The translations under genes were made by a program, and so were the position numbers. The notes beneath the pieces are model-generated. The model worked only from the letters and a program-made list of their open reading frames with translations, was not told the origin of the DNA and did no database searches. Shown piece by piece: positions 7,045 through 53,345 of a DNA stretch of 64,000 nt. Within the stretch, counting starts at the first letter, position 1. Each line of letters starts with the position of its first letter. The stretch is from Candidatus Obscuribacteraceae bacterium (GTDB lineage: Bacteria > Cyanobacteriota > Vampirovibrionia > Obscuribacterales > Obscuribacteraceae): positions 160,001-224,000 of the forward strand of contig JBGAHS010000010.1 in the NCBI GenBank assembly GCA_044226015.1, read 5' to 3'.

Positions 7045-7063
7045 GACAGCGTTTTCCTTTTGG

Positions 7064-16049: not shown

Positions 16050-19000
16050 CTAGTTCATCGCTATGTTCTCCGGATTTGTTCTGCGATATTCGCGATAGCT
16101 GCCTGAAGACTTGCGAACTTGCATGATGATCGCGGCGTTCTTCAGGACTGTGTGAACGATGTGGACATCATTTCTGTCTTTCGATTGCTTCATCGCAGCC
16201 CAGGTCTTCATACCTCCAAGTGCTGACATGATGGAGAACTCAGATGTATGAACAGCTGACGAGCCAACAAGGCTAGATGTTAGTGTGCGGTGACCGATGC
16301 AAGCTATTGGATTGACTTGATCGAACGTACCCATTTGTCCGCTCACCGTAAGGTGATGTCCCGGTGCAAGTTTGATTTCTTGCTTACCAATTGTAGTTGC
16401 GACACTGCCAGAATGGTTGTCGTGGAAATTGTAAATTGACACACCCTCTGGTTTCGCTACTACCAGTACCACTGCCCCGGCGTTCACCTTGATGCTACCG
16501 AAAGCGGTTTCGACTGTTGTGTCTTGTTTTGGCACCATCAAAACGCTTCCGCGTTGCAAGTTAAGCTTGCCAGCATTCATTCTTCCATCGACCCCGAGCT
16601 TGCCGAAGTCTCTTACAGAGCCATTCTTCATGCCTGTTGGCATTTGTGGCGCCAGCAGTGTATGCAAGCCCGCCGGCTTGAATTCAGAGCTGATTTCAAC
16701 AGTGTCGCTTGCTGGATCAACCATCAACTCTGCACTGCTGTTGGTGCGCACATTTGTCCCATCAAACAGAATGAAGTTTTCTGGAATGAAGCTGAACTCG
16801 TCTCTTGTTGCAGAAGTCGAAGGCAGGTATTGTGAGACAGCTGATTTAACCGCCTCAGCCATCTTGTTTGCCGTCGCCGCTGTCTGAGTGGCTACGTTGT
16901 TGACCCACGAGGTGAATCCATTCATCGCATTACCATTGTTGACACTGTTGTTCGTGCTGGGTGCTGCGGCGGGAGCTGCATTGGCTGGACTCACAGTAAC
17001 TGCGTTTGTTGGACTTAGCAGGCTGCCACCAACTCGAGTTGGTGCATCCAATGGAATAGGGTCTGCCTTGACTGTTGCACCGGCTCCGATTGTGATGGTT
17101 CGTCCAGCTGTTGTGGTGTCGAATATGACATCAGCACCAATTGCTTGCAAGTTTGCGGTCTTACCAGGAGTCGCAGGCTGAATATTGCCAGCGTTGGCGC
17201 CAGCAAATATGCCGCCACCATTCTTGGTGGTGATGACAAACCCTGGTAGTGAGGTGACCTGTCCAGATTTCGCAGCCAGTACGTTGGCAATTCCTATGGT
17301 TACAGAACCCTGGCTTGTATTGGTCGCCCCCTTGATGATTGTTGTTACCTGCTTACTCGCTGCTATGTTGATAGTACCGGAAGCAGTGTCTTTGTTCTGA
17401 AGGATGATATTGCCACCTGATGCCTGCACATTACCATTGATGTTCATTGCACCAGCAGCGTTGACTAAGGTGATGTTTCCAGCGCCAGTCAGCGAAGTGC
17501 TAGGTGCCTTGGTCGAAACACCAAGAGCAGTAAGTGTTCCAGTTGTCTGGAATCCGAAGGAAAGCCCAGCTGTTGAGACTCCCAATGTGACAGCAGCACC
17601 TGTGTTGCTCACATTCACCAGAGCATTGGTCAATGTCGACAATGTGATGGTTCCGCCGTTGACGGTGGTAGCCAATGGTGCGGAGGACGAACCTATGTTT
17701 GACACACCTGTGGTCTTCAGTGTCAGAGCACCTGCATTTGTTGTGATCGAGCCGCCGACACTTCCAAGGTTTGTTGCATTGAACAATGATGTGCTTACGT
17801 TGTAGCTGGAGACTGCGGTGCCCACGGGAGCTGAACTTGTTCCCACCGTAGATGTAGCGCCACCATTGATGGTGAGCAATCCATTACCGATAATTTTGGT
17901 TCCGCTTCCGGTCAGGCTGCCGCTAACATTGAATGTGATGTCGCTTGCACCAGCTACACCTGCAACTACGCCATTCAAGAGTATGTTGTTGGCACTGCCA
18001 GAGTTCGCAGTCAGTGTTATCGAACGAGCGCTTATCGAGCCAACGGTCATTTTGCTTGCAGCTGTAGCGGTTTGTGTGACCACAAAGGAGGCACCCCCAC
18101 TAGAGTTGCCCAGGGTAAGTGCTGCAGAGCTATCTGACACTGCTACTGGTCCTGAGGAGTTTATGGTCAGGAGTGGAGCATTCGTTGCAGTTGCCAGTGA
18201 CACACCTTGCGTTCCTGCATTTATTGTCAACGATTTAGCTGCTTTGATGTCGCCAGATGTTTGGGTGACATCACCTTTGCCCGAAGCTGTCAATGTCACA
18301 ATTCCGTTTGTTGTGGTTATGAGCTTGAATGCACCGAGATGAACTGAACCGCTAGTCGCGTCAGTTGCGGCAAGGTTGATGCTAGTGGTGGCATTGATGT
18401 CACCCCCTAAGGTTATCGCAGCGGTGCTGTCTTGTGCCTTGCTGACGAGACTGAAAATAGTTCCCTTTGAGGCAAGCAATGTACCGACGGAGTTGTTCTG
18501 TAAGTAAACTGCGTTTGTCGTGTTTGCGCTCAGGTTGGAAGCTGCCACCACTATGGGGCTCTTCGTAGCTCCGATCGCTCCAGTACCAGAAACTAAGGTT
18601 ACCTTGTTGGCAGTTACCACTCCCTTATTAAGGACGGATGTGATAGTTCCTGTACCTGAGGCATTTAATGCTGCGTTGCCAGATTCGTTAATAGCAGAAC
18701 CAATAACGATGCTTCCCTTGCCTGGGTCAGTCATATTTATTGTTAGGTTTGTACCGCTGATGTTGCCAGTTGTCGTGACGACTCCTGATTTCGCATTGTT
18801 GTTAACAACCAGGTCGGTAACTGTAGAGTTGCCCAGGCTGAATGAAGCCGTGGCGTTGAGTGTGAGAGTTCCTGGGAAAGAAAGTGAGACAGTTTTTGCA
18901 CTCGTATTGACGGTCGCCGGCACGCCGAACCCACCGGCTCCTGCACCTAGAGTCAAAGCAGTGACAGTAGGTCCGAATGTGAGACCAGATAAGCCGGTGA

Positions 19001-22000
19001 TGCCACCATTGGAGCCACCAGCCGTTAAGGTGAAGGTGGCTGGCAGCACCGCCGGCAGATTTGAACCTACTGCGATGTTACCCGTAGTGAGGCTTCCGAC
19101 AGTTGAAATTGTCAGAGCACTCTTCGGGTTGAGGGCTCCGTTGAGAGTGACAGTACCGCCCTTGATGCTGACGATTGTGCCGCCAGATACGGTGCCCGTG
19201 TTCACCGCGCCACCAACATTGATGGTCAGGTTTTTCACGCCCATCGTGATTGTTTGACCTGTGCTGGTGAAAGAGGCGGATGTCTGATTAGCGGACACGA
19301 ATGATAGGTTCAATTTGCTTGAGTCAATATTGCTTCCTACCGTCATCGTACCGGTATTGTTGCCATCCCCAATTTGTAGTGTTCCTGCGGTGATGGCGGC
19401 TATGTTTGCAGGGCTTACGTTGAAAGCCGCTGCGCCACCCAGAGATATTGCCTGGTTGAAAGTAGATGGAGATAAAGTGACTGTGCTTGAGCCAGCAGCC
19501 ACTTTTCCATTTAGTTGCAGCTGACCTCCAGAAGAAGGTACTTCCAGGGTAATCGGTGAGTTGCTAGAACTTATGGTTGTGCCTAGATTCTGAGAGAAAT
19601 TCGGTAACGAGTTTATCGTCACGCCCTTGCTGCCTGAAATGTTAGCTCCTACACTCGTATTTTCGGTGAGCACTGACGATGAGTTTGTCAGGACGATTGA
19701 ACCGCCCGTCGAACTCAGCGCACCATTTATAGTGACTTTGTTTGAACTCGACGACCAGTTTATGCCACCAGTTGATGCAACGGTTGACCCTGAATTCACC
19801 GTAATACCATTAGTAGCGGTAAGCGAAAATAGTCCAGCTGTATTGGTTACCGCAGCCTTCACTAGAGAGTTGGTGCCAAACTGCACCGCGGCTGCGCTGA
19901 CGTTTATGCCCGTGCCGGCCGTTTTCAGAGCTCCGCTTCCAAGAATGAAGTCGCCATCATTGGTGATTGCAGAGAACCCTTTAGAAGCAGTTATTGTGGA
20001 TGTTATGTTGATGGGTGCTTGTTTTACACTGTTATTGATATTTATAGTTCCAGCACTAGCTGTGATGGCGCCATTAATGATGGTGCTTCCCTGAACGTTG
20101 AAGGTCAAACTGCCGGACGTAGTTATCGCTCCCTTTCCTGCAAGTGCAGCTCCAGTTGTTGGGTCAATGTTTATTCCGAATGTCGAACCCTGGTTGCTGC
20201 TTACATTGAACGCTAATGGTTGTGTGCTTCCTGTAAGAATCAACGGGCTGTTAATTACAACATTGTTTGATGTGCTTGAGTCGCTGATATTTACATTAAT
20301 AGGATTGACCGATTGGAAATTGGTGAGGGTTACGCTTAGTGGCAATGCTGGATTCGGTATGTTCAATGCGGACAAACGCGAACTCAGGTTAATCGGGTAG
20401 AGAATCATCGTTCCTCCCGTCACTGCAAAAACGTTGTTGTTTTTGGTGAAGGTCAATGCCCCGCCGATGACCCCGCTGGTTTGCTGAGCCGTGATTGTTT
20501 GAATCGTACTTGAATCAGTCAAATCGAGGCTCGAAATAGGAGTGCTGTTTGAAGCCCCTAGCTGCGTGCCACCACCGAGGGTGATTGAGTTCTTGTTACC
20601 GCCAGTAACACCACCGCTCTGGAATGCAACTTGTAATGGCGTTGTACCGAGCGCAAAAATCGTGTTCTGAGGTCCTTGAGCTGTTATGCCTGCCGTTCCA
20701 AACGCGATGAAGTTTGCAGGCTTTGTGGTTGGAGAAATAACTGTGAATACGTTGGCAGGATTCGAACCTTGAACAGCTGGTACCGGTGATTTCTGGAACC
20801 AGGTTGGCAGTCCAATTGAAACGGACAGTCCATATTGTCCGCCATTGTGCGCAAATATTTGGGAATTCGAGCCAATGCTGATTAGTCCTGAGGTATTGTC
20901 ATTCTCAAGTATTATTCTTCCGGAATAGGTGTTTATGGTCGTTGAGGAATTGACAACCAGGTTTCCGCTCAGGGTTGAGCCCACCCAGGCTGTGATTGCA
21001 CAATTGGTGCAGTTCGGGTTAGGAGATGAACCAGAGTACTTTCCACTCGCTAACAAATTTCCAGTGATGGTGAGATTGCCAGCGCCGGTGCTGCCGACGC
21101 CGTTAGTCTTCAGGAAGATGTTTCCTGCCGTTATGTTACTTGGGGTAGAGAAGGTGTTGGCTGTCATTGTGACAATACCATCACCTGCACCAGTTGTGGT
21201 GACAGCATCAGCCCCTGGCAATCCGAAGGCGTCTTTCTCGCCTTGGACGGCTGGTACGTACGAGGTATTTGCTGATGCGCCTCCAGACCCACCATTTGCA
21301 AAAGTACCGCCGATAGCAGACGGTAGAAGTGTCGTTGTTCCGCTGGAAAGCAATCCACTGTCTGTGTAGTAGTGTCCACCGAAGCCGCCGACATTTCCAC
21401 TGCCGCTAGTTGCTGTTGAAAAATAGGGTAACCCATTTGTCGGCGAGGTTAGTGATTCATTTGGCGCCCCACCGAAGACACCGGCAGCATATACTCCAGA
21501 AGCTTGGCTCTTGTTTCCGAGTATTGGAAGGTAGGCTCCACCTCCCCATCCGCCGAAACCTGACTGTTGCTGAGGGATAGCGGCTGTCGATGCGATGTTC
21601 TGGGTGTCGCCACCGCCGCCACCGTATGTACCACCACCGCCAGCGCCTCCGAGTCCTGAGAAGTTCGCGGAAGTTGGCTCAAGTACACCGGCGCCTCCGC
21701 CGCCACCACCAGCGCCGTAGCTGCCACCGCCGCCACCGCCTGACCCACCATATATGCCTGATTTAGAGTTGGTCATGCCGGTTCCACCATTGCCACCTCG
21801 CCCGCCTGCGACGGCGAAGATATCACCGGCTACTTGAATGGTTGTTCCGAGTTGATTACCTCCTGTGACTGTGATGTCACCAGCGGAGCCTCCGGAGCCT
21901 CCAGTGCCTCCGGCACCATGTTCGGTGATACCAGAACCGCCGACACCTCCGCCGCCTCCTCCGCCGCCTCCTCCGGAGGAATTGATACCTCCGTTGACGA

Positions 22001-25000
22001 GAACATAACCATTTGATTGAATCGCCACTACTCCACCTGCGCCGCCATTGCCTCCGTTGCCTCCAACAAGGAGCCCACCTGCAAACGGTGCTCCAGTGCC
22101 ACCACCACCTCCTCCTCCAAAAGACTGAACTCCTCCGTTTACGCTTACTCCCAGGTTGCCATTAACATAGACAGCTCCACCGGCACCACCTGCGTAACCG
22201 TTGAGACCTGTACTGCCTGGCGCAGGCTGATAGGGGGGCGCGATGTTCGTGGTGACCGGAGTAGAACCCGAAAGTCCTATAGATACTAGCTCTTGCGTGC
22301 TCACAAAACCGCCCGCTACGATTGATATACCGGATTGAGTGAGCCCGATCTCCGACACCTTGTTATTGACTGCGCTTCCCGCGCCAGAGGCGGATACTTT
22401 CTGGGTCGAAATTGATCCGTTTGGGAGATTCCCTGTGAAAAATTTAGTGGAGTAATCACCAGTGTTTATGCCAATAGACACTGGTGCTACTACGCTTCCG
22501 GCCGGAGTAGCTGTCGCAATGTTAACGCTGCCGACTCCTCCGTAGACATTCCCTGTCGAGATGGTTACGTCCGCAGTTGGTCCGCCGGATGCCTCACCAA
22601 CGATAGCGATCCCAAAAGACCCCCGAGCCGAGGTATCTGTGCCTGAAGGGCTGTATGCTCCTATTGTTGAGCTAGACGGAATTGTAATTGTTCCGCCGAT
22701 GAGACCTGCAACTGTATTCGAATACGCAACAACCGCGATGTCTCCGCCAAATCGACTTCTGTCCGTCTGCGTGTTGAAAGAGTTGTTATCCGTTATAAGT
22801 GGTAGGGATATGTCTCCGCCAATTCCTGAACGGCCGAGAACAGACACGCTGTTGCTAGCCATGGTGGCAGTAGCGCCAGCCAACAGGAAGATACTGCCTC
22901 CGCCACCAGGAATGGGGCTCGTCCCTGAGCGTTCTGTAGCCGTGAGGCTGGCCTTCACACCTGTGGTGCTTATACTTCCAGCGGCTGCTAAGAAGATGTT
23001 ACCGTAAGGCGTGTCTATAGCATTTGTAAAGGTAATTGAGCCCTGGTTTTGTGAAAATGGTGTCGAAATTAGCACCATGTTTCCAGTTGAGTTATTACCA
23101 GGTGATACTCCAGTGTATATTATTTTCGTCGTGCTTATATTGTCCAGGTACAAGTTACCGTTGGCTTGTATAGCAAAACTTCCCGCTGCGGAATCGTGGA
23201 AGCTGACTCCATCGCCTCTGCCCTGAATATTGAGTGGACGTCCAGGGTTGTTAGTGAAGTCGCCTACGGCACCGTTTGAATTGATTTGAAGATTATTTGT
23301 GAAAATCGGCAGCAAGGTGCTGGAGTTATAGGCGATCGTGCCTCCGGGTCCGGTTCCTGGAGTCGCGCCACCGACAGAGTCAAGGTATACTTGCGAGGCC
23401 GAAATTGTTCCCTGTAAGCTTATGTTCTGAGGGATGGTGGCGCTGAATTTTGCTGGGGTTACAATTGTTCCCAAATTCAAGGCTGAAGCCTGAAGTGATG
23501 TGCTAGTTATACTTATGTTGCCGGGTGAGACAGCCGTCATGGCGTTTTGGAATCTATTAGAGTTTCCGCCTATCGTGACGCTAGTTCCAAAAAATGCCAG
23601 TGTTACTGTCGAAATACTTGAAGCTGACGCTGAATTGTTCCAGGTAAGTCCGCTAGGACTGAGTGAGACAATTGGAACTATCAATCGAGAGTCACCAGTA
23701 ATTGCCAGGTCCGTTGCCGGATTGTTTATGCTGGTGAATCCGCCTGCACTATAAAATACTGGTTTGATATTGCTTGGACCTTGCGTCTCTTGGATGCTAG
23801 ATGGCGCCCCGCTCGAGAATGCTAAAGTGGTTGTAGGCAAACCGGGCAAAGCACCTGGAGCTGTCGAGTAAAATGCGGGAAGATTGCTTGAATTCAGAGA
23901 CACGCTAATGTTGCTGGTAGAGGCGCTGTTGAAGGTTGCTGCTCCTTTTCCAGTTGCTGCATTGTTGATTCCAATAGAAGTAAGAACACTTCCTGTGTAA
24001 CTAAGGCTGGTGATGAATGTGCCTGCAGGTACTCCAGCGCCTGAGACAGTCATTCCCAACGCGAGTTGCGTTGGAGCGCTGGATATGGCGATGGTTTTGT
24101 CACCAATATTCGCGATGCTGCCGTCGAATTTCGAAGCTACTGTGTTGTTGAAAAATCCGAATAGATTGCCTTGATTCGAACCTGACCCGGTACTAGCATC
24201 CACGGCCGCTACAATTGTAGTACCAGAAGCCGCACCGGCAGATAGGAATGCGTAACCAGCTCTACCTAGAGAAAGAGCAGCTTTCATGGAAATGTTTGTG
24301 ACGCTGATGCCGCCTGGGGTCGATATCATGACTGACCCGGCATCACCAGAAGCTACGGACGAGTTTTGGTCCGTGTTGATCAAGGTTCCACTGATGGCGC
24401 CAGAGGTACCTATCGATACAATTTCTACGTCTCCTCCAGCGCCTGTGTTGTTTATGCCATTGTTGGTGCTTCCGCCTTTAGTGGAGATGGTGCCGAAACT
24501 GACGTTGCCTGTACCTAATGTGGTGTCTCCCGCGAAGAGGATGACGGTGCCTCCGTTAGCGCCCGATCCTGAAGTTGCTGAAGTGCTGTCACCCGTGGTG
24601 ATGTCGACAACGTTAATGTCTGCGGGTGTGAGTATAGCCACGTTGCCACCTACTCCTGTGACAGGCTTCGCGCCGACCCCAGGGTCTGTGATGGTGAATC
24701 CTTGCGTTGAGATGTTTCCAGTGACTCTTATACTGGTATTGCTCGTAGCCTTGTCTAAGCCGGAAGTCAAATAGACAGCTCCACCTGAACCACCGAGAGT
24801 AGAGTTTGCATGTGTATCAATGCTGGCTAAGTCGATTGCAAATGTACTATTGTTTGAACCAGCATTGACTGTTACAGAGCCACCGTTTGTTGCGAGATTT
24901 CCAGCCTTGACACCACCACTAACGTAGGACGTACCGGTAGCATTTCCAGAAAGTACGTTGCCTGAGAGGTCGTTTATGACCAGTGGCTGTCCTGCAGTTG

Positions 25001-30472: not shown

Positions 30473-30498
30473 GCGTTGTTTTTTTTGATTCTTCAGCA

Positions 30499-30636
30499 AG
30501 TGCCACCATTCCAGCGTTATAGAGTTCATAAGCCGGGTGAAAGCCGGCGCTCCCATGCCTTATTTTAGATGACGTAATACAGGTCAGCTTATTGCTAGCC
30601 TCCTTTGAGCCTGGGAGTGCCACCATCCTGGCGGCT
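30499..30636. repeat. Degenerate REP-like GC-rich inverted repeats
   Basis: AGCCGGGTGAAAGCCGGCGCTCCCA (30531-30555) is an imperfect inverted copy (17/25) of TGGGAGTGCCACCATCCTGGCGGCT (30612-30636). AGTGCCACCAT also occurs at 30499. Confidence 0.5.
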
Positions 30637-42300: not shown

Positions 42301-44782
42301 CGCTACATCTGGCGTAGGAATCTCCAGCCCAACAATCACACTCAAGACCGCAAAAGATGGAATTGTAGGTGACAGCAAGGCTCTGGTTCTTGCTAGCAGT
42401 AAGGGAACCGTTACTCTAAATGTCGTCGCAGATAAAACGGTGAGTATCAGCTCAAAGAACAACGTGATTCTTCAAGGTGCTTTGAATCTCACGTCTGCTA
42501 CGAGCACTGGTGTTGATATGTTGGTCACTGGCAACCTTTTGTTTGATACTGCAGCTAGTATCACTTCGAAGGCGCATGTTGATCTTACTGCAACCGGTAG
42601 CATCACTCAGAAATCGACTGGGGGCTCTACATCTGTCACTTCCGATGCAATTACGCTGACTTCGGGAACCGCCGGGATAGGCACTGCTAGCGCCAGGTTC
42701 GGAATAGACACGAACTCAACAGGGAATATTGAAGCCATTTCTAAGGGCGATGTATTCTTGAGTGCAAATAATGCGACTCAGACGATATTTGCTGGGGACA
42801 GTGAGGGGCGTAACTTTGATGTGAGCTCTATTGGTACGATTTCCATTTCTGCAGGAGATTCTATTTACGGTACCAGTTCTATTGCTATCAACGTCACCGG
42901 CGCAGGAAATGGCATTTTTCAAACCGGCGTTGATAATCCATTCATCAGTAACAAGATAACATTGAATGCCCCCAATGCAGTCAGTGGCACTGATGGTGTA
43001 GGTACTGCCGCGAATGCCATAGGTATTACTAGCTTGACAGCGAACGGTACCATTACTTTGAGTACCTCTAGTAAGGGGTCCATAAATATTGTGTCTGACT
43101 CTGCTGTAAATCTGGGTGCGGTTAGTGCAGATGTTGACTCCAATGTTGGTATCACCGGATTTAAGTTGAATTCTGACGGCAAAATCAATGTCACTAATGT
43201 TGTTACTGCTGGTAACGTTTTTATCGCTGGTACCAAGGTTGGTGCCAATATAACTAGCTCAGGCAAAGGCTCCGTCAACGGTGTCAATGTTACATTGGAA
43301 ACAGACAAAGCCAACATTGGCTCATCTACTGCAGGCTTAGTGACTGGCGCTGCTAATCTTTTTGCCAACACGAGTTCAAGTGGGCTCATCAATTTGAAGA
43401 GTACGAATCTCGCTGGTGTGAACCTTGGTGCTTCCAGCAGTTCTACGTCGCTGACTTTGACTGCTGTCGGGCCGCTCACCGTCAGTGGTGCAATCTCTAC
43501 TAATGCTCCCAATGGAAGCAAAGCCGGCAATCTCAGTCTCGTCACTAACAGCGGCAAGCTGCAAGTTTCAGCTAACCTCTCCGCTAGCGAAGGCAGCATA
43601 AAGATTCAAAACACGGATAAAAACGGTTCGATTGTTATTGATAATAATTTGACAATCGACACTAATGTGAATGCCGCAGTGAAAGGAACACTGGGCGCAA
43701 TATCAATCTTTATCGGAACTGGGACCACCACGCAAAATCCGAGTCCGCCGGCGACGATTGCTAACATCACTGTCAACCAGGTTGCTGGAACAAACAAAGC
43801 TTACTTTGGGGCTAACCCGTCCTCGATTACCGCTACGGGACCGATGACAGTTAATCTGAAGAACCAGAGTGTATACTTCAACGCGCCCTTGACTGGAACC
43901 ATTCAACTCGGTTCTGGTACAGTGATTACTGCTGACCCACTCGCATTCGTGCCAGATTCACCAATTAAAACAAGTCAGAATGTCATTCTTCCCAGAGGTG
44001 TTCAATCGACGCAAGCGCCCGCTGCTGTGTACCCGCTAAGTGTCGCAAGCGCAGGAAATGCTTACAACTTCGCAAACCAAGTCTTTCTGCCGGTGACGGA
44101 TACCGTAAATGTCAAACAGAGTTTTGCGGGGGCGGATGCCTCCTCAGCAGCGCAGTCGCATTTTCTGGCAGGCTCAATAAAACAGATTGACGGGTTATTT
44201 GATGAAAGTCAGATCACGGTATGCAATGATTGCTCGTCTAAAGTAGACCTCAAATATGGTGGCACAGTTTTTGCGCCGCGACAAAATTTATCCGTTGCTA
44301 CGCCGTTTGGAAATGTACATTTAGCGGCTGATTCAATAGCGTTAGTTGTTGTCACTGAAAGCGGTTTGTCGATTTATAACCTGCACGATGAGCATCGGGG
44401 AAGTGTCAGGTTGCTGCGCGAAGGCGGACGACAGTATTCTGTTATTTTGGGCGAACATTTGACTGTGGCCAGGAAAGGCAAAGAGTTTCCTGAGCTCAAT
44501 CCGGTACCGTCGATTTCGCATGCAGACCTTCGCACTTTTGGGGGTACAGCTTGGAATGTCTATCAATCTAAGTTCTCTTTGACTTCAGCGATTGTGGGGT
44601 TAGACTCGCTTGCGCTGCTTAAGAATTCAGCTGATTCTTCCAAGAGGAAATTATCTGACAGGCTATACAAGAACGCTGCCATTCTGATGCAGTTCCGAAT
44701 GCCGAGCACGCCTTATTCAAGAATGTCTGCTCGCAACATTGACGATAATCGCAAAACGCAGTTTGTCGCCCAGCAAAACTAG
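36359..44782 (+). CDS. Giant secreted exoprotein B (~2807 aa) with inserted YVTN/YncE-type beta-propeller and FecR-like C-terminal domain; likely start ATG 36359
   Basis: Signal peptide MKASTSSALVFLLFTQVIHPLTALA; propeller blades VYVPNNASNTVSVIDSSTNLVVATI and AYIANTASNNISVVDLSNNTVTSTI; shared N- and C-domains. Confidence 0.85.
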   Translation: MKASTSSALVFLLFTQVIHPLTALAQSRPGSASPGNSSSSGVTPINLDLSSKNRNLTANNLGSSGQVSIKVGNQTMQVNAATMLTPAERLAVYQVLSTGQQSILLGSLGNAIGGSFNIGAKFNQYVSSLVIPRGVTAIQNAAVNSNLSLAGNLTNAGSLLGVSTSQDYSSLLISAQNIYNRQGALISTMLPAGGIAGVSGAISSLNLSLSALNNIVNYGSIISSGNLNLSAGNSIINALPAGTSGAAPLMQAAGNLSFNSSQIANAGLINAINGNVNFATQGLQSLNINNKNGTIQALLGSINLRDAFFSGKADTSLLGGNLLSKELNVFSSDGIANVHVKDLTGVVNVSAACAFITAETDNLSIGSLNLTGDPLIANAAGDLTLLSSMNLITNGADLALLAKGNITAGNALSIDTSSLTGSGGDITIVAGANFAAPVGNVTKVTGASSTGGSINFLSPSSVSLIDSSAKGASGDAGSIQLLAFAGSTKGSGTITLPSSMPINANSVGGKAGDVIITAGGQSAVVLDNTSPATAKASTVQVSISGGVTTVGALSAVNFIGPIHNVGLAGTGSTSIIAAQPKVSTGGVTITDGSITAGSFSAGTPTASNGRIYLGAIDSSKDLTVSSGNTIVFSEAVNVGGNATVSTTANNGNISIEKNFKAGGNISLTAHGSGSITTQSFFIASPQVGSGAYGAAIQSLGNFVYVPNNASNTVSVIDSSTNLVVATIDLSAVDIVAPRGAASSANGQFIYVVGNSSTAGQGTVVVIDTSNNTVSTTYSFQSGTPSANANFEPKFVGVSGGKVYVLSDYALGTSTPTAASQLTVIDPLNPGSPVNVSLPGAVGRGNFGGLAINPQGTRAYIANTASNNISVVDLSNNTVTSTISLGTAGTTGPTALSFNPTGSRLFVAYADTAGSGSMSLKAIDTLPGSNTFNQVVLTQPFANANPAAIPLAISSTPTGAQLIMSDTNLVGIQNPISLSNTEVPFFPSGINSVSGYGTSNFSTIVTNGGVRNVQSYITTPDNTGKGNVLVLQAPTIQSGKDLTLKSTSGVISVSYDVQGNTLIANTSSSVTLSNVGTAASNIGPSSSGSNGLLFQVNALGGLATIGAITGGAIALTSVQGGITLGANVGTATTSAISLEAADSITSTAGKVIAKSIDLTSHAGSIGTDASHRITTSTGTMNIYRTGTGNVFVGNTGTLLVPSVGNGTGTFDITNGGNITVLNAIAGTNVSVVTTSSNGKISLAGVNTPDASSSTSINLNANGTGSITTTAPLNALLGSITLKSGTGNIGTSTLPLSLNTAQLSANTTGAGSVFLTNTSDLKLGNSGAGKTFQLVNAGSIGTDSNPTGSIAGSVINLTDTKASTTIVFGGNVGSSTSTVTIDASPNTVSVSQKSGILSAASLKVTTTSGDINLNNVRASKMTFDSTSGDVTIVNNVTSSLLGAKGDVINISNPNAALTIAGSVLGSDITLSSTNSTATSPGKIIISADIGNALTDGIHINTTKSGTITQTKNTFSITSNSAATGIFLQTEDGAIGTSAIPINTVTEKLAANTTGVFGSSVFINNTGADLVLGKSSGQSFTLKNTGNISQNIPDPNNPPTVLYATFVDLTSTTGSIGVDESHRFNIAGTTANVPSALELTINTGGNAFISGNNSNGASVQINLAKSSFVAGSSGASIWTFGGSLLLTTGATLKSNGTIDFSSSGDIIQLGTATQLFAPKFIIESSTNTGSSKFPLLISALPGSNIPVEISVHSFQDMHISSKSSLTVVNTPLLIYTPPVGPVVDNNNKVDGSLFLTSSGAISFANGVYPNGGALVYKALGGSINVGSSVNFTTTSTSLTASAGSVNIGTGSLISTTGLVISARDAITQADAAAKVTISAGTISLTSGTQGIGTALNPIAFQAGLNSLDLTVVSKGSAFLEAPTAGKGEELNLVGNSSATGTFSLKSVNDVRLQDNASKVPIITGGAVVIETTGTAKGIIQNVLGATSGVGISSPTITLKTAKDGIVGDSKALVLASSKGTVTLNVVADKTVSISSKNNVILQGALNLTSATSTGVDMLVTGNLLFDTAASITSKAHVDLTATGSITQKSTGGSTSVTSDAITLTSGTAGIGTASARFGIDTNSTGNIEAISKGDVFLSANNATQTIFAGDSEGRNFDVSSIGTISISAGDSIYGTSSIAINVTGAGNGIFQTGVDNPFISNKITLNAPNAVSGTDGVGTAANAIGITSLTANGTITLSTSSKGSINIVSDSAVNLGAVSADVDSNVGITGFKLNSDGKINVTNVVTAGNVFIAGTKVGANITSSGKGSVNGVNVTLETDKANIGSSTAGLVTGAANLFANTSSSGLINLKSTNLAGVNLGASSSSTSLTLTAVGPLTVSGAISTNAPNGSKAGNLSLVTNSGKLQVSANLSASEGSIKIQNTDKNGSIVIDNNLTIDTNVNAAVKGTLGAISIFIGTGTTTQNPSPPATIANITVNQVAGTNKAYFGANPSSITATGPMTVNLKNQSVYFNAPLTGTIQLGSGTVITADPLAFVPDSPIKTSQNVILPRGVQSTQAPAAVYPLSVASAGNAYNFANQVFLPVTDTVNVKQSFAGADASSAAQSHFLAGSIKQIDGLFDESQITVCNDCSSKVDLKYGGTVFAPRQNLSVATPFGNVHLAADSIALVVVTESGLSIYNLHDEHRGSVRLLREGGRQYSVILGEHLTVARKGKEFPELNPVPSISHADLRTFGGTAWNVYQSKFSLTSAIVGLDSLALLKNSADSSKRKLSDRLYKNAAILMQFRMPSTPYSRMSARNIDDNRKTQFVAQQN

Positions 44783-45077
44783 CAGATTCGGTGAATTCTT
44801 AGTGTTAGCTAGAATACAATGGCGAAATTTGTGTCGCCGAAAACTCCTTTGTGGCAATTCTTTTGCGGTGTTTGCTATCTATCGTCTAAGTCCGATTGAA
44901 TGATAAAAAGTTCTGTTAAATTCTTAGAGGGTAAGGCTTTTGACTGATTGTCAGTAGCTCGTTGATCCAATACTCTTAATATGGGAACTCAGATTCACTG
45001 CGTTTTTCGCGCGTAAACGTTGCGAGAAAAAATGTAGTGAGTCTTACAAAGTTAATCCAACGAAAGAGTTGAGGAAC

Positions 45078-48000
45078 ATGACAAAAAATCTCTCTGCAGC
45101 CGTAGTCTACATGCTCGCTTTTCAAGTCGCGGTGCCATCACTAGTCTGGGCTCAGGCTAGACCAGGTTCGACCGGGAACTCGACTGGAACAGGGTCTTCA
45201 GGTGTTCCAATAAACCTTGATTTGTCTTCGAAAAATCGAAACTTGACTGCCACCAATCTCGGTAGCAGCGGACAGGTCGACATTAAGGTTGGCTCACAAA
45301 TGATGACCGTCAATGCCTCGACTCTTTTGACTCCTGCTGAACGTCTGGCTGTCTTTCAGGTGCTTTCGACGGGGCAGCAATCGATTCTTCTCGGTTCACT
45401 AGGAAATGCAATCGGCGGAAGCTTCAACATCGGGTCTAAGTTCAATCAATATGCTTCGGGTTTAGTCATACCTGGAGGTGTGACTGCCATTCAGAATGCC
45501 GCCGTTAACAACAGTTTGAATCTCACCGGTAATCTAGTTAACGCTGGCAACTATCTCGGTGTTTCTACAAGTCAAAGCTATACCAACCTTTTGCTGGGAG
45601 CTGCGAACATCTACAACAATCCAGGTGGACACATCTCAACCGTACTTCCTGCTGGCGGATTGGCAGGTTACAGCAATGCAATTTCCAATGTGAATCTCAC
45701 TTTGAGTGCGCTCAATAACATAGTCAACTCTGGCTCAATTACCAGTTCGGGAAACTTGAATTTGGTTGCAGGCAATTCCGTCATCAATGCACTGCCTCCA
45801 GGAACAACCGGGTCTGCACCTGTTCTCCAGGCTGTTGGTGATGTGAATTTCAACGCCGGGCAGATTGTGAACTCTGGTTTGATTTCTTCACTGACTGGCA
45901 ATGTCAATTTCGCAACTCAGGCGCAGCAATCACTTCTTGTTGATAACGGCGGTGGTGCTATCAAAGCATTGCTAGGAAACATCAATGTACGTGACCCGCA
46001 GTTCTCAGGCAAATACGATGTCAATTTGGCTGGCGGTGACTGGTTGTCTAAACAGCTAAATGTGAACTCGGGAGACGGTGCAGTCAGGCTAAACGTTGGA
46101 AAACTTACTGGTGCGCTCAACGTCACTGGTGGCACTGCCCATGTTGTAGCTGACACAAGTTCGTTGGTGCTCGGTACCATGAACCTCTCAGGTGACCCTC
46201 TGTTTTCGGGTACAGGTGATGTTACTATCTCTACTCCGATGACCTTTCCTGGTGTTGATCTCGCGATTGTCGCTGGCGGTAATATTCTCACTTCTGCAAC
46301 AGCAGTGAGTCTGGATACACATTCGAATGGAGTTGGCGGCAGCATTACCCTCGTGGCAGGTGCAAACTTCGTAGTTAATGGATTGCCAGCGAACGAAGAT
46401 ATTACAATTACAGGTGCAAGTGCCAGTGGCGGAAAAATAGATCTTTTGACCAAAGCACCTGCAAGCTTTTCGATTAACAGTTCTGGTGTAAGTGGCGATG
46501 CTGGAAATATTCAGTTTATTGCGTTCAGTGGAAAGGCCGATGCATCAGGAAGCATAACGATTCCATCAACTGTGCCAATCAGCGCGAACAGTACCTCTGG
46601 CAAAGCAGGCAACATTACATTTATTGCGGGCGGTGCAGGAGCCATTCCTAATACCTCTGCCAAGCTTTCAATTTCTGGTGGCTATACTCAATCTGGTTCC
46701 TCAGTTACACTCAATTCGATTGGTACAATAAGTGCTGTTGGAAGTGCTGGAAGCGGTGATATTACTCTGAGTACCTCACAACCAGTAGTCTCCAACGGTG
46801 GGGTCAATATTCTCCAGGGAACGATTAAGAGTGGCAATTTCAGTACATCTACGCCGGTGGCAGCAAAGTCAGGGCGTGTAACGCTTGGAACAGTAACAGG
46901 TTCTGGAAAATTGACCGTCACCGCGGGTGACTCCATTCTTTTCAGAAATGCGGTTAAGGTCGATGGTGATGCCACTGTCAATGCTACTGCCAATAATGGT
47001 GGCATCACTTTCACTAACAATTTTGTATCTGGCGGCAATGTGACTTTGGGTGCCAATGGCGCAGGAACGATCTCGACTCCCAATCAGTACTTGACCAGCG
47101 TTGCTGGTGGTGGCAACTATCAGATGGGTGTCGCTGCCTCGCCTGATGGAACCGTTGTGGTGATGCCGAATTTCTCGAGCAACAACGTTAATATCATCAA
47201 CACTGCCAACAACTCCAGCACGATTATTTCACTGACTGGGACTATCAACAGTGGGCCGAGGGGGGCTGTCATATCGCCTGATAACAAATTTGCTTACATA
47301 GTCGGATTGGACGTTCAAGGGGCAAACCGAACAGGCAAGGTTATCGTAATAGACCTGTCTTCGAAATCTGTTAGCACCACTTACAATTTTACCGCTACCG
47401 GTACACCAAGTACTTTTGACCCGCAGTTGATTGCTGTTTCCCAAAACACGGGCAAAATTTATGTTCTTTCGGCATTCAACGGGCAGCAAGATGCACAGGT
47501 CACGGTAATTGATCCCCTGAACCCTCTTTCGCCACAAAACATCGTGGTGACAGGCAGCAAAGGTGGTGCATCAGGTAATAGCAATCTCGCTGGTGGCATT
47601 GCCGTCAATGCGCAAGGGACGCTCGCTTATATAGCAAGCCCTGCTTCGAACAATATTGCTGTCTTAGATTTGAAGACCAACACTGTGATGTCGACAATCT
47701 CTTTGAGTTCAGTAAGTCCTAATTCTTTTGGACCTGTCTCTATTGCTTTCAACACAACAGGCACGCGCATCTTCGTTGGAGAGAATGTCGTTTTTGCAAA
47801 ATCTGGCAAAATACTAACTATAGATGCCGTTCCCTCATCGCCCAATTTTAACAAGGTGATTTCTTCTAGCTTGACCTTCTCGGCTACGTCGGCGTCAGCT
47901 GGGTTCTTCCCTCAAGCTTTGACTATGAATCCGACCAACACGTCTCTGATAGTCGAGCCCACTTATCTTGAATTGCAAACCACGTTCAATCCTCTAACCC

Positions 48001-51000
48001 TACAGAACGTTGACAACACCGGTATTGGTACCAGCCTGGCTCCAGATAATTATGGTTCGAATACTTTTTCAACCATTGTGAATAACAACGGTGTTCGCAA
48101 CATCAGAACTTACATTGCTTGTCCAACTCATACAAATCCGCTGTCTGGAACAATGGCGATTATTCAGAGCCCGACCATTATGGCAAAGAATCTGACAATG
48201 TCGTCTGGCACCGGTCAGATTTCCGCAAATTATGATGTGCAGGGCGGCACAATGAAGGTCAACACTGGTGGCAGCGTCATTCTGTCAAACGTGGGCTCTG
48301 CTGCTAGCACGGTTGGTGCTTCCAGTGCTGGAACCGGCGGCAGCGTGTTTCAGTTAGGTTCTGTCGCTGGACTCTCTATAACAGGAAACATCACTGCCGG
48401 TGGTCTCATCAATATCTCTGCTAATACCGGTGGCATAGCGTTGGGCGCGAACATCGGTAGTGCAGCTACAAGCTCTGTGACTCTGGAAGCCGCTGGTACA
48501 GGTTCTATTACCCAGACCGCAGGACTGCTCTCAGGTAAAGTGATAAATCTCTTTGCCACCGGAGGTGGTAGCATCGGTGTCAATAGCGGTAGCCGCGTTA
48601 AAACTGCTACGAATAGCTTGAATTACTTTGCTACGACTCCAACCGGCAATATCTACCTGCAGAATACTGGTACTCTCACGTTGAATAGCATCAATATGGA
48701 GGGAACTTTTGATCTGGTAAACACAGGAGCAATAACTTCCAAGCAGCTTATTTCAGCCGGAAACGTCTCCTTAATAACTAGTTCGGGTAGTTCTGCTATT
48801 ACACTTGCAGGAATCACCGCACCAGACGCTGGCACTATAAATCTTCAAACTAGCGGAAGTGGAGCCATCTCATCGACCGGACAATTGAAGGCCCTTGCCG
48901 GTATCACGCTTACATCTGCGTCGGGAAGTATTGGCTCTTCTGCCAAACCGCTTTCTCTTCATACCAGCAATTTGACCGCGCTGACCTCAGGAAGCGGTAG
49001 CGTTTACCTGACTGATGATGTTGCTATTACGTCGATGGGCGCATCAGGAGGGCAGACCTTCCAGCTCTCAGCAAATGGTGATATCACGACATCTGCCATA
49101 AGCGGTAAGACAATAAACTTGTCTGTGACTGCTGCAAACGGTGCTGTGACTCTAGGCGGGAATATTGGTGCCTCTACTTCGACCGTCACCATAAAAGCTG
49201 CCGGCACCGGAAAGGTCTTGCAAACTTCAGGCACTCTGGCTGCAAGTTCGCTCACTGTCACTACAGGTAGTGGCGATATAGATTTGAGTGCTGCCGCTAA
49301 TAATGTTGCCAAATTCTCCCTGTCTTCTTCGGCGGGAGGTGCCATCAAACTCGATAACACCGGCAGTTCTGCTACAGGCTCGCAGACTCTGTCATTGGCT
49401 AAGGGAAGTTCAGTTGATATCAATACGGCCGGAAATCTCATTATCGCCGGTTCGGTAGGGCAGGGCGGAGCAAGCACAGTCACACTGCAATCCGGTGGTT
49501 CGATTACCCAGTCTGCCTCTACAGCAAGTGTTACTGCTGGTTCGGTTAGTCTGGATGCTGTCGGTGGAGTTGGCACTTCCACGGCACCAATTAAAACGGT
49601 CACGTCGAAAATAATTGCTCTGGGCAGCACTGCTGCGGGCAAGCTTGGTGTCTACATCAGCAACACGGGTGATCTAGATATACTCGGTGTGACCGGACAG
49701 ACTGTAAGTTTGACTTCAACTGGTGCGATAACACAAAACACTCTGCCTACGAATTTGATTGAAGCTAATACATTGATATTGAAGTCGGGGACAAACTTCG
49801 ACATTGGCGCCAGCGGCTCTCCACTGCATGCTACTGGCGTTGGCGGGGCATTCAACCCTAGCACGGTGAATCTCACGGTCACCTCGGGTGGTGACACTTA
49901 TTTCAGCGCCGGGTCTGGTTCACAGAGTAGCCTTGTTACTCTCAATTTCACTGGGAAGAGCACAGCCGCTGGTAGCAAAGGCTTCTCTATAGCAACTGAG
50001 ATTTCGGGAGCATCTGCCCCTGGCGCTATCACATTCGCGTCCGGAGCTTCAATGGTTGCTTCTAATCCAAGTGCTCAAGTTGTTCTGTCAACAGTCAATG
50101 GTACATCAGGTGCCAGCATCACCCAAGCGAAGACCGGTACTTCGATATTCGCGCCTTCTGCTGTAATTAGTGGTGGCAATATAGGTACTCTCTCCATACC
50201 GCTCGGAGTGTCAGCTCTGAAGGCTACGGATAGCCTGACGCTTCAGTCAACGAATACTGTTGCTAGTTCTACCTATTTGAATGCCGCTTCGAATGTAATT
50301 TTGTCGGGAGCCAGCAGCAGCTCGAAGGATTTCAATTTGAGCAGTACCGGCAATATATCAATGAGCAGCACCGGCTCTTTCAATGCAGCTCAGTCGATGA
50401 CAGTGACTGCGAAGGGCAGCATAACGCAAGACATCGCAAGTGCGGGCTTTAGCGCTCTGTTCGCGACGCTCAGTTCTGGAGCTGGCGGCACCGGTACGCT
50501 GGCCATTCCTGTTGTAGTCAATTCTAAGTCTGGTTCGATACTGAACTTGACTGCGACCTCTGCAGGAAATGTCTTCTTAAAAGCACCATCCTCTGGCGTA
50601 GGCGAATCACTAAGTCTGGCTGCCTCGAATGCTAAAGGTAGTCTGGGTTTCAATCTCCAATCGGTGAATACTGTGACTCTCGTGCAGGCTGCTGTGGCAG
50701 GGGTGACGGCACCCAGCGTCTCCATCCAGGTCTCTGGGGCCGGACAGTCTATATTGGAATCGGGAGCAGGGGTAGGCATTTCTGGTACCACTGTAAATCT
50801 GAAGGCCGGAGCTGGTGGCACCATAGGTGACACATCGCCCGTGAATGTCGTTGGCTCGACCGTAAAGCTTACCGCGAATGCGGACTCGGTTAATCTTGGC
50901 AGTACAAGCGGCATTATCAATCTCGTAGGCAACAATACGGCAACTGCCGCACTTGGAACTGGTTTCAAGCTAAATGCCGCCGGAAATATTGTCATCGCTG

Positions 51001-53345
51001 CTGGTGCCAGCGTCAGTGGACCTGTTGTCAATTTGAGTACAAGCAAGGGCACCGTTACACAGGTCGATGTGGGCACGAGCACAATAAGTGCCGGTCAGGT
51101 CATACTTTCAGGTACCTCTATTGGAACGGCAAGTACTAAGACTGTTGTCTTCAGCTCTAACTCTGCCAGTCCTGTGCAAGCAACTCTGAATGCTACGACA
51201 GGAGCCGCTTACGTCACAGTAGGTGGCTCTGGAGGTGTTGATTTTACTGGCACTAGCAATATCAAAACCATAGCTTCTGTCACCACAAATGGTGTTAATG
51301 CGCCGATCAACTTTAAGTCAGGAGCGACGCTGACCGCGGGAACTTCTGTTGCCCTCAGCTCTACTGGTGGTATCACTCAGTCTGCTAGCTCGGCTACAAT
51401 AATTTCACCCATTATCAATTTGAGTGATTCCAGCGCGAGCGGTATAGGATCCGTCGGTCAAGGTATAGTAGTGAGCAATGTCGTTGGCAAAACTACTCCA
51501 ATAACACTTACTGTGAATGACACCAGTTCTGCTTTCCTTAATTCAAACTCTTCTGTGAACATTGCGCCGAGCAAAGTCGGGGCGGTGGCATTGAGCAATT
51601 TCACTCTGGTGAGTGCAGGAACCATCACTGTTACAGGTCCTCTAACTAGTGGCGATTTTGTCAGCCTGAGCACAACTGGCGCGGGTGCAAACATTTTGAC
51701 TTCTGGTTCTGGGCTTATCACTGGCACAATCTCACTGAGCAGTGCCCATGGAAGCATCGGCACTACTGCAGCTCCTCTAAAGGTAAATACGACTTCACTG
51801 GTCAGTACAAATGCTCCAGAAGGAACAGTTGCAATTTCAAACTCCAATACATCGACTCTTGGAATTAATGGAAACAGTACTGCCAAGAATGGGTATTCTG
51901 TGACTACTGCTGGACCTCTTGTGATTAACAGCAATGTCAGCACATCGGGCGCTGTCTCCGGGTCTAAGCTGGGTAACATCAACCTCGTAGGTAAGGGTAA
52001 CGTCGTTGTATCTGCAAATGTTACGTCTGAAGAAGGAAGCATCAAGATTCAAGATACTGATGCCGCGAATGGCTCAATAACTGTCTCTGACAATAAGAAC
52101 ATCAAGAGCCATCTTGCTGTTAATACTGGTACAACGGCCGGTCAAGTTTCCTTGATTGTTGGACCATCTACATCTACTGCTAATCAGTCTCCTCCATACA
52201 ATCCTGGAAACAGTTTTGTCTTGAATGCTAATGGTGGAAAAATTTACTTCGGTGCTAATCCTACTGGTGTAAAAGTTTCCAGTGGACAAGCTACGATTAA
52301 TGCCATAAACCAAAATGTGTTCTTTAATACATCAACGCCAACCGGTAAGATTACGTTAGGCAATGGAGTAATCGTTGAAGCTGACCCACCGCCTCTCGTA
52401 CCGACAATCGCATCACCTGCAAGCAGTGCTAGCGCATCAGCGCAGTCATTGCAGCTGGGCTCTATTGCTACTCCATCTGCTATTGTAGGGTCTGTTGCAC
52501 CAATCGCAAACATCGCATCTGGATTTGTCCCGCTCGCGCAGGCTTCGATGCCGGTGCCGACCGACTTAACTGCTAGTCGCATCTCAGCACTTGGGAACAG
52601 ATCTGTTGGCTTCGCGCATGGTGGCAGTGACTCTGTTGGAGAAATGTCACTCGGAGAGATGGCTACGCTCGACGGAACGGGAATTCATTCATCGCAAGGC
52701 GTGCTTGCTGGTGTCGCAGTGATTAATTCAGCGAATTCTAACTCTATCAGTGCTGAGTCGCTTCGCGGTTCTGTTAGCCAGGGGATTGCACCATCCAGTT
52801 TTGTATTGAGTGAAGGACAAATTCTACTTGCGCCATCGAAAGACATTTCGGTTCACACGCCATCAGGTACGGTGCATGTCGACAAGGGTGCGATAGCACT
52901 ACTGCTGGTAACCCCAGAGACAACCTCTATATACAACCTTCATGACGGACATCGCAACTCTGTCTCCATAACTGCCGAGCGCCAGACCATCAATCTTTTG
53001 CTTGGTGAGCATGCAAGCCTGAGCTCAGGAAATGGTGACTTTGCAGATGTAAACTTGCTTGTTGAGGTCAGCCATGCCGACCTGAAGTCGCAAAAGCTAG
53101 CGAACAACACGAGCTTGCACAGAAGTAAGTTTTCGTTGACTTCACTGTTGGGATCTGGTGTTCTCTCCAATCTCAAGCAAGCTGACAACAGCACAGAAAA
53201 GCGTGTTACAGCTCGCCTCCACAAGAACGCCGCTATCATGATGCAGTTCCGTCTGCCTTCCTCGCCTTACGTGAAAATGCAGAGCAAGAGTGTCGGACGA
53301 ATTGCACAGAAGAAAGCACCAGTGACATTGCTTGCTGAGAAATGA
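45078..53345 (+). CDS. Giant secreted exoprotein C (~2755 aa), tandem paralogue of B; likely start ATG 45078
   Basis: Signal peptide MTKNLSAAVVYMLAFQVAVPSLVWA; N-domain very similar to B (PINLDLSSKNRNLTA...LTPAERLAVxQVLSTGQQSILLGSLGNAIGGSFNIG); same propeller and C-domain. GAGTTGAGG-N3-ATG precedes both B and C. Confidence 0.85.
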   Translation: MTKNLSAAVVYMLAFQVAVPSLVWAQARPGSTGNSTGTGSSGVPINLDLSSKNRNLTATNLGSSGQVDIKVGSQMMTVNASTLLTPAERLAVFQVLSTGQQSILLGSLGNAIGGSFNIGSKFNQYASGLVIPGGVTAIQNAAVNNSLNLTGNLVNAGNYLGVSTSQSYTNLLLGAANIYNNPGGHISTVLPAGGLAGYSNAISNVNLTLSALNNIVNSGSITSSGNLNLVAGNSVINALPPGTTGSAPVLQAVGDVNFNAGQIVNSGLISSLTGNVNFATQAQQSLLVDNGGGAIKALLGNINVRDPQFSGKYDVNLAGGDWLSKQLNVNSGDGAVRLNVGKLTGALNVTGGTAHVVADTSSLVLGTMNLSGDPLFSGTGDVTISTPMTFPGVDLAIVAGGNILTSATAVSLDTHSNGVGGSITLVAGANFVVNGLPANEDITITGASASGGKIDLLTKAPASFSINSSGVSGDAGNIQFIAFSGKADASGSITIPSTVPISANSTSGKAGNITFIAGGAGAIPNTSAKLSISGGYTQSGSSVTLNSIGTISAVGSAGSGDITLSTSQPVVSNGGVNILQGTIKSGNFSTSTPVAAKSGRVTLGTVTGSGKLTVTAGDSILFRNAVKVDGDATVNATANNGGITFTNNFVSGGNVTLGANGAGTISTPNQYLTSVAGGGNYQMGVAASPDGTVVVMPNFSSNNVNIINTANNSSTIISLTGTINSGPRGAVISPDNKFAYIVGLDVQGANRTGKVIVIDLSSKSVSTTYNFTATGTPSTFDPQLIAVSQNTGKIYVLSAFNGQQDAQVTVIDPLNPLSPQNIVVTGSKGGASGNSNLAGGIAVNAQGTLAYIASPASNNIAVLDLKTNTVMSTISLSSVSPNSFGPVSIAFNTTGTRIFVGENVVFAKSGKILTIDAVPSSPNFNKVISSSLTFSATSASAGFFPQALTMNPTNTSLIVEPTYLELQTTFNPLTLQNVDNTGIGTSLAPDNYGSNTFSTIVNNNGVRNIRTYIACPTHTNPLSGTMAIIQSPTIMAKNLTMSSGTGQISANYDVQGGTMKVNTGGSVILSNVGSAASTVGASSAGTGGSVFQLGSVAGLSITGNITAGGLINISANTGGIALGANIGSAATSSVTLEAAGTGSITQTAGLLSGKVINLFATGGGSIGVNSGSRVKTATNSLNYFATTPTGNIYLQNTGTLTLNSINMEGTFDLVNTGAITSKQLISAGNVSLITSSGSSAITLAGITAPDAGTINLQTSGSGAISSTGQLKALAGITLTSASGSIGSSAKPLSLHTSNLTALTSGSGSVYLTDDVAITSMGASGGQTFQLSANGDITTSAISGKTINLSVTAANGAVTLGGNIGASTSTVTIKAAGTGKVLQTSGTLAASSLTVTTGSGDIDLSAAANNVAKFSLSSSAGGAIKLDNTGSSATGSQTLSLAKGSSVDINTAGNLIIAGSVGQGGASTVTLQSGGSITQSASTASVTAGSVSLDAVGGVGTSTAPIKTVTSKIIALGSTAAGKLGVYISNTGDLDILGVTGQTVSLTSTGAITQNTLPTNLIEANTLILKSGTNFDIGASGSPLHATGVGGAFNPSTVNLTVTSGGDTYFSAGSGSQSSLVTLNFTGKSTAAGSKGFSIATEISGASAPGAITFASGASMVASNPSAQVVLSTVNGTSGASITQAKTGTSIFAPSAVISGGNIGTLSIPLGVSALKATDSLTLQSTNTVASSTYLNAASNVILSGASSSSKDFNLSSTGNISMSSTGSFNAAQSMTVTAKGSITQDIASAGFSALFATLSSGAGGTGTLAIPVVVNSKSGSILNLTATSAGNVFLKAPSSGVGESLSLAASNAKGSLGFNLQSVNTVTLVQAAVAGVTAPSVSIQVSGAGQSILESGAGVGISGTTVNLKAGAGGTIGDTSPVNVVGSTVKLTANADSVNLGSTSGIINLVGNNTATAALGTGFKLNAAGNIVIAAGASVSGPVVNLSTSKGTVTQVDVGTSTISAGQVILSGTSIGTASTKTVVFSSNSASPVQATLNATTGAAYVTVGGSGGVDFTGTSNIKTIASVTTNGVNAPINFKSGATLTAGTSVALSSTGGITQSASSATIISPIINLSDSSASGIGSVGQGIVVSNVVGKTTPITLTVNDTSSAFLNSNSSVNIAPSKVGAVALSNFTLVSAGTITVTGPLTSGDFVSLSTTGAGANILTSGSGLITGTISLSSAHGSIGTTAAPLKVNTTSLVSTNAPEGTVAISNSNTSTLGINGNSTAKNGYSVTTAGPLVINSNVSTSGAVSGSKLGNINLVGKGNVVVSANVTSEEGSIKIQDTDAANGSITVSDNKNIKSHLAVNTGTTAGQVSLIVGPSTSTANQSPPYNPGNSFVLNANGGKIYFGANPTGVKVSSGQATINAINQNVFFNTSTPTGKITLGNGVIVEADPPPLVPTIASPASSASASAQSLQLGSIATPSAIVGSVAPIANIASGFVPLAQASMPVPTDLTASRISALGNRSVGFAHGGSDSVGEMSLGEMATLDGTGIHSSQGVLAGVAVINSANSNSISAESLRGSVSQGIAPSSFVLSEGQILLAPSKDISVHTPSGTVHVDKGAIALLLVTPETTSIYNLHDGHRNSVSITAERQTINLLLGEHASLSSGNGDFADVNLLVEVSHADLKSQKLANNTSLHRSKFSLTSLLGSGVLSNLKQADNSTEKRVTARLHKNAAIMMQFRLPSSPYVKMQSKSVGRIAQKKAPVTLLAEK

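Follow-up and report, generated by a model that had tools for sequence, protein, structure and literature searches.

The window, a 64,000-nucleotide stretch of a Candidatus Obscuribacteraceae genome, contains three genes for giant exoproteins. Gene A (16050–28679, minus strand) encodes 4209 aa, gene B (36359–44782, plus strand) 2807 aa and gene C (45078–53345, plus strand) 2755 aa. All three were uninterrupted open reading frames ending in AMN, QQN and AEK respectively, as the first-pass annotation had claimed. The start codons of B (ATG, 36359) and C (ATG, 45078) were each preceded by GAGG, and C is a tandem paralogue of B, from which it is separated by a gap of 295 bp. B and C were also covered as strain variants in an independent run of 2016, with only compensating indels within the genes; run X1 was left out of this evidence because it may be the window's own source.

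In gene A, a signal-peptide-like leader (28584–28679, minus strand; judged by eye) precedes the N-domain (27411–28493, minus strand), which combines an LTPA cap with a beta-helix, includes the motif GDPL (27579–27590) and matched the haemagglutinin repeat TIGR01731 (E = 1.7e-5). A glycine-rich segment without a family match follows (21180–22112, minus strand), then a cap module ending in ADP (17058–17522, minus strand) and a C-domain predicted as a FecR/PupR CJM-like beta-fold with helices (16071–16589, minus strand). In gene B, on the plus strand, the corresponding elements are the N-domain (36488–37657; GDPL at 37472–37483), the cap module with its terminal ADP (43457–43939) and the C-domain (44207–44740; E = 9e-45 against the family HMM). 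In gene C, also on the plus strand, they are the N-domain, modelled as a parallel beta-helix with an 85-aa helical cap (45207–46367; GDPL at 46191–46202), the cap module with its ADP (51906–52388) and the C-domain (52767–53294; E = 4e-46).

Alignments bore out the shared architecture that had been read from the sequence. The N-domains of B and C were 40–43% identical to that of A, with LTPA, GQQ, GGS and GDPL invariant, while the cap, ADP and C-domain aligned at 30–31%. The stalk had been described as beta-helix-like; in B and C it also carries an inserted beta-propeller, which that description did not mention. The propeller in B (38402–39484) is of the YVTN/lactonase type (TIGR02276, E = 3e-16; PF10282, E = 7e-8), and that in C (47082–48188), likewise of the YVTN type, matched TIGR03866 (E = 2e-10) and PF10282 (E = 6e-6). 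From the combination of beta-helix and propeller we infer a role in adhesion. None of the three proteins had a detectable catalytic domain, and no Pfam or NCBIfam family accounted for the N- and C-terminal ends, or for A as a whole.

Elsewhere in the window, TPR genes flank the B–C pair (35133–36011 and 53375–54484), but these were not adopted as partners since TPR genes are abundant across the genome. An operon of TetR, MFS, HlyD-type and TolC-type genes (3260–8761) is an ordinary efflux system unlinked to the giants; it was rejected as an export route because it has no ABC transporter and is not linked to the family elsewhere.

The genome (G000, 92% complete) encodes 50 giant Gly/Ser/Thr-rich proteins of 1,469–14,391 aa, A, B and C among them, and their genes occupy 606 kb, or 7.4% of its DNA. 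A family had been proposed from the three alone; the family is real, but its size was understated. HMMs built from the N-domain and from the cap and C-domain matched members at E-values down to 1e-120, far past chance. An iterated C-domain HMM matched 65 proteins in this genome, 48 of them giants of more than 1,400 aa; the remaining two giants have the N-domain and lack the C-domain. These two (G000:C10:420504–429701 and C10:433155–442265; L059, L060) carry instead a PI-x-Y/F motif and a short acidic tail, and are possibly released forms. A second set of giant open frames (G000:C12:364671, C9:323696, C11:406378 and others) was unrelated: these reach 7,753 aa, have acidic N-termini and lack an apparent signal peptide. 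One C-domain protein (G000:C11:156596–160273; L044) is possibly misassembled: its N-terminus is garbled and it contains long NESDIA and TSP repeats.

Not all motifs of the three proteins were fixed across the family. The LTPA cap occurred in 39 of the 50 giants; because it was repeated within the stalk at G000:C12:276044, C1:311885 and C11:978608, its position is not strictly confined to the N-terminus. Asp-Pro closing the N-domain was kept in 48 of 50. The downstream ADP, annotated as a fixed element, is present in A, B and C, but ADP or GDP was found in only 24 of the 50; PI-x-Y/F was found in another such fraction (24/50, last 520 aa), and both in three. Self-cleavage at Asp-Pro was not adopted: the N-side DP lies in a between-strand turn of the model and the C-side ADP occurs in only about half of the family, which makes a structural role equally likely. 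The stalks had also been proposed to be interchangeable. Similarities among N-domains and among C-domains were weakly correlated across 48 giants (rho = 0.16; best partner identical in 17/48), which fits some shuffling, although B and C resemble each other over much of their length.

Beyond this genome, the C-domain profile matched 2,755 clusters at 50% identity, and the named relatives were Candidatus Obscuribacterales or Melainabacteria, which points to Obscuribacterales as the probable order. Atlas clusters labelled Verrucomicrobiota or Bdellovibrionota were left out of this range, and a single Bacteroidales match to the locus was discarded as a spurious frame opposite another gene. Within the order, the N-domain was present in 45 of 61 genomes and the C-domain in 58 of 61; their counts per genome, which are lower bounds, were correlated (rho = 0.88). 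The N-domain was absent from 200 other genomes of the phylum. In one relative (G039:C3, near 174652–175152) a C-domain lies inside an open frame of 25,007 aa.

The predicted fold of the N-domain appeared TPS-like, with EtpA and HxuA as the top structural matches, yet no Foldseek match was significant. Of 43 N-domains compared with Pfam, five weakly matched the haemagglutinin repeat PF05594 (best E = 0.0017). The C-domain model was a beta-solenoid-like structure with helices, resembling the FecR/PupR CJM; it was neither a beta-barrel nor an SLH anchor. The 58 C-domains tested against Pfam showed no consistent family and no FecR_C or PF04773 match, nor, among the matches listed, any to SLH at E up to 1. 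Sequence searches of the PDB returned nothing credible for either domain. True FecR proteins (PF04773) were found at G000:C7:691947–696642 and C1:1004963–1009574 (L119, L121), where their operons also encode CHASE2 histidine kinases and response regulators.

In 149 of the 150 best database matches, at most 30 aa separated the end of the C-domain from the C-terminus. The domain had been described as the C-terminal module of the giants, which is correct for A, B and C, but it also occurs on small proteins and inside a sensor kinase. The non-giants among the 65 carriers were mostly small proteins with signal peptides, some with tandem domains. The kinase (G000:C6:296935–300378; L045) is a hybrid histidine kinase comprising signal peptide, C-domain, a PTD motif, transmembrane helix, HisKA, HATPase and receiver; two independent homologues of this fusion were found, at 76% and 38% identity. 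The position of the C-domain before the transmembrane helix fits a periplasmic location, and the CJM fold itself derives from a periplasmic module, according to the accessible part of PMC7186176.

Searches for established export routes agreed with the original reading that none was recognisable. The TPS domain PF05860 matched nothing in the genome nor any of the 43 N-domains, and TpsB (ShlB, PF03865) was not found in the genome, while controls in same-phylum genomes were positive for each (5/5). NPNL, NPxG and NPNG motifs occurred in none of the 50 giants, and hhalign of the N-domain against 20 TPS domains gave 16% probability, outside the N-terminal core. By these searches the N-domain does not score as a standard TPS domain with a cognate TpsB, despite its apparently TPS-like fold. 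Across the 61 order genomes ShlB produced no strong match; nine weak ones (E = 3e-5 to 1e-3) were mostly frames of 690–770 aa, the size of BamA. One single-contig genome (G079) had one N-domain match and no ShlB match. The only Omp85 protein in the genome was BamA-like, in an ordinary bamA-skp-lpx context unlinked to the giants. Autotransporter barrels (PF03797) were likewise unmatched in the genome (controls positive in 3/14), and an aromatic C-terminal residue was seen in only two of the 50 giants. There was no RTX match in Pfam for A, B or C, and the giants have signal-peptide-like leaders, judged by eye. Two secretins were present, one PilQ-like and one Tad, and one of the two bears an STN domain. 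Clustering of neighbouring genes within this genome identified no conserved partner beside family genes.

A heuristic screen of the genome for outer-membrane barrels identified an unannotated family with three members (C9:602851, C11:696040 and C8:340215). These are proteins of about 40 kDa with approximately 12 amphipathic segments, counted by inspection. In the Atlas, language-model features assigned BBP2_2 to 12–19% of the members of the best clusters, and one cluster was SlipAM; the predicted barrel identity rests on these features and the segment count. No Pfam match was obtained for 26 barrels, PF04575 included, and sequence search of the PDB gave nothing credible.

The distribution of the barrel followed that of the C-domain. 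Of the 61 order genomes, 57 had both, three had neither, one (G103, 89% complete) had the C-domain only, and none had the barrel only. Fisher's test gave p = 1e-4 for this coupling, which overstates it because the genomes are related by descent. Over the class, the C-domain was present in 34 of 151 genomes and the barrel in 33; both were found in the one outlier from another order (G146), as adjacent genes. Neither occurred in 300 other genomes of the phylum. Twelve order genomes had barrel and C-domain without the N-domain, showing that the barrel tracks the C-domain. Barrel copy number also rose with the number of giants (rho = 0.64–0.67).

Gene order was evaluated at 60 barrel loci. The first 20 consisted of 13 picked for visible adjacency and seven taken blind; here 18 of the 23 barrels had a family member no more than two genes away, with three of the seven blind loci positive. 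The second, unselected set was 40 of about 58 remaining loci (41 barrels), leaving aside loci close to a contig start, two that were already known and some in fragmented assemblies. In this set, a family member was found within one gene of 8/41 barrels, within two genes of 17/41 and within three genes of 20/41, against background values in our own genome of 1.9%, 3.8% and 5.6%; the other 21 had no family gene within three genes. Nineteen of the 41 represent a single inherited arrangement and are not independent; of the other 22, nine were within two genes. The inherited arrangement comprises a barrel, a periplasmic TPR-CHAT protein (about 1,070 aa) and a small C-domain protein rich in proline. 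It is present in this genome (G000:C9:602851–608472; L115) and at L156, L159, L162, L165, L169, L171, L184 and L185, is kept in genomes without giants, and is possibly an ancestral module.

In six genomes (G009, G039, G062, G083, G099 and G107) a giant gene and a barrel gene were adjacent and co-oriented, the giant first. In G107, of the same genus, a 67%-identical orthologue of C11:696040 directly precedes a protein whose best match in our genome is gene B. None of the three barrels in our genome adjoins a giant gene, and the window contains none of them. A Skp-like gene was found within two genes of 8/41 unselected barrels (OmpH, E = 1.6e-11). The genome has three Skp/OmpH-like paralogues beyond the bamA-adjacent gene (G000:C12:466326, C8:343562 and C8:393463), one of which is directly upstream of a barrel and another between two giant genes. 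Several barrels in relatives adjoin TPR-like genes, and in G075 a FecR/CHASE2-kinase-type operon adjoins the barrel locus.

A short motif offers a further lead, the pattern having been chosen post hoc after inspection of the data. PTD is nearly invariant at the barrel N-terminus (125–128/129), and a PTD-like motif immediately preceded the C-domain in 12 of 27 barrel-locus proteins, compared with 7 of 123 background windows. It was rare before other C-domains (2/55 proteins of this genome, 3/128 database matches). A strict form was present in nine of 6,029 genes of this genome: two barrels, four C-domain proteins and others. Gene C is one of the four, its linker containing the peptide VPTDLT (52554–52571, plus strand), which is like the barrel motif by pattern comparison and is likewise a lead only.

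The data directly show the family and the two predicted folds; they also show that barrel and C-domain are coupled across genomes and that no TpsB or autotransporter gene could be detected. The first-pass suggestion of an undescribed surface-protein system is supported and gains a candidate partner, which both the distribution over genomes and the order of genes link to the C-domain. The predicted barrel is probably a functional partner of the C-domain proteins. That it is their translocon is a more even question; export and surface retention of A, B and C by this dedicated barrel, encoded elsewhere in the genome, is the leading explanation, with a chance about equal to that of its being wrong. 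The same balance applies to the fuller proposal: a secretion system of the Obscuribacterales in which a non-Omp85 barrel of about 12 strands, with Skp paralogues, would export and tether dozens of beta-helical proteins of 1,000–25,000 residues through a FecR-fold C-terminal docking domain, the same domain coupling the barrel to inner-membrane kinases and to the CHAT-domain protein.

Under this proposal, the leader would direct Sec export to the periplasm, where Skp-type chaperones, suggested by the gene neighbourhood, may hold the giant chain unfolded. By analogy with TPS, the N-terminus would lead the chain through the barrel, and the N-domain would fold first outside and nucleate the beta-helix. 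Once folded, the C-domain would remain periplasmic and, docked beneath the barrel, act as a stopper, so that the stalk with its inserted modules would be displayed as a rod resembling an adhesin. Small domain-only proteins, and likewise the kinase fusion, may bind at that docking site too, acting as plugs or sensors. N-first threading with a retained C-domain is put forward tentatively, being rather doubtful as a specific mechanism. It is favoured because it accommodates giants, small proteins and kinase fusion alike and follows the logic by which other giant adhesins are retained (PMC13090378, accessible part). Several points weigh against the proposal: two giants of this genome lack the C-domain, G103 has the C-domain but yielded no barrel, none of the barrels in our genome lies beside a giant gene, three barrels for about 50 cargoes imply sharing, and a 12-strand pore is narrow, so that help from BamA might be needed.

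An unlikely alternative gives the barrel a role in trans-envelope signalling, as a receptor or an anchor comparable to FecR with TonB-dependent transducers, and has the giants cross by means of housekeeping BamA. The C-domain fold derives from a signalling regulator, the kinase fusion exists, BamA is the sole Omp85 found, and the most conserved barrel arrangement, with CHAT-TPR and small C-domain proteins, occurs in giant-less genomes. However, barrel copies scale with giants, barrels stand directly behind giant genes in several genera, and the bamA context shows no link to giants. A similarly unlikely possibility keeps the barrel as translocon but reverses the direction, the C-domain being a Slam-like targeting domain exported first, with release or anchoring by other means. 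Type XI cargo share a C-terminal domain and some are Skp-dependent (10.1101/2024.09.26.615229, accessible part); the barrel tracks the C-domain rather than the N-domain, and one of its Atlas matches was a Slam-family cluster. Against this, the C-domain precedes a transmembrane helix in the kinase, the N-domain is both apparently TPS-like and the better conserved end (mean column identity 36% versus 25%), and PF04575 was unmatched in the barrels.

It is improbable that folding takes place in the periplasm and that the giants then exit by a PilQ-like or Tad secretin whose STN/N0 domain is bound by the C-domain. An STN-bearing secretin is available, and the CJM fold of PupR packs against STN domains; but the C-domain has no counterpart of PupR's STN subdomain and the isolated CJM failed to bind its partner (PMC7186176, accessible part), the only gene linkage is a giant located three genes away from the Tad secretin, and the barrel profile is left unexplained. 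Ordinary but highly diverged two-partner secretion, its TpsB missed or unassembled, is very improbable: TpsA secretion domains are the best structural matches of the N-domain and the genome is 92% complete, but ShlB gave only weak, mostly BamA-sized matches over the order, no giant has NPNL or NPxG, hhalign placed its match outside the N-terminal core, and G079 has an N-domain without ShlB.

No description of the giant family or the barrel was found in the accessible portions of the literature searched (PMC5422565, PMC5498481 and 10.64898/2026.03.19.712371 included); most subscription papers and all supplements lay outside the search, and giant-gene tables there could list them. A term search of the accessible part of 10.1101/2023.11.21.568195 returned neither this lineage nor FecR. 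What is new is the candidate partner, an undescribed outer-membrane barrel predicted from sequence to have about 12 strands. If it is a translocon, very large beta-helical proteins would have a new way across the outer membrane without TpsB or a fused autotransporter barrel, in a non-photosynthetic sister group of cyanobacteria; the FecR fold would gain a role in sorting and anchoring, and the expenditure of up to 7% of a genome on giant genes would be explained. If it is instead a signalling receptor, it still represents an undescribed envelope module. The system is minimal, with one barrel of about 40 kDa and cargoes down to about 1,100 aa in apparent operons, and hence directly testable in a laboratory host.

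Compared with known systems, the proposed system would work like two-partner secretion (type Vb; FHA/FhaC, EtpA, HxuA) and resembles type XI, but lacks defining features of both. It differs from type I (RTX) adhesins in its signal-peptide-like leaders, the absence of an RTX match and the lack of a conserved export-gene neighbour. Like classical autotransporters (type Va), it would pair a beta-helical passenger with a predicted 12-strand barrel. The autotransporter barrel has 12 strands, preceded by a helix; here, passenger and barrel are separate genes, with no PF03797 match. Two features set it apart from type XI in particular: the cargo domain has a FecR fold instead of a TbpB-like beta-barrel, and the barrel, with about 12 predicted strands and no Pfam match, would serve cargo of up to at least 14,391 aa in a non-proteobacterial lineage. 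The Slam barrel has 14 strands. With type XI (Slam/DUF560) it would share a non-Omp85 barrel, a C-terminal domain uniting the cargo and an involvement of Skp (10.1101/2024.09.26.615229, accessible part). The C-domain has the all-beta fold of the periplasmic CJM subdomain of FecR/PupR (6OVM, 4M0H), to which it adds three strands and helices, and it terminates giant exoproteins; A, B and C have no anti-sigma domain, transmembrane helix or STN subdomain. In LapA/DvhA and type Vb adhesins, a folded periplasmic retention module holds the giant adhesin in its outer-membrane conduit (PMC13090378, accessible part, where FecR is not mentioned); the role proposed for the C-domain is like that of these modules, with a different fold and a different conduit.
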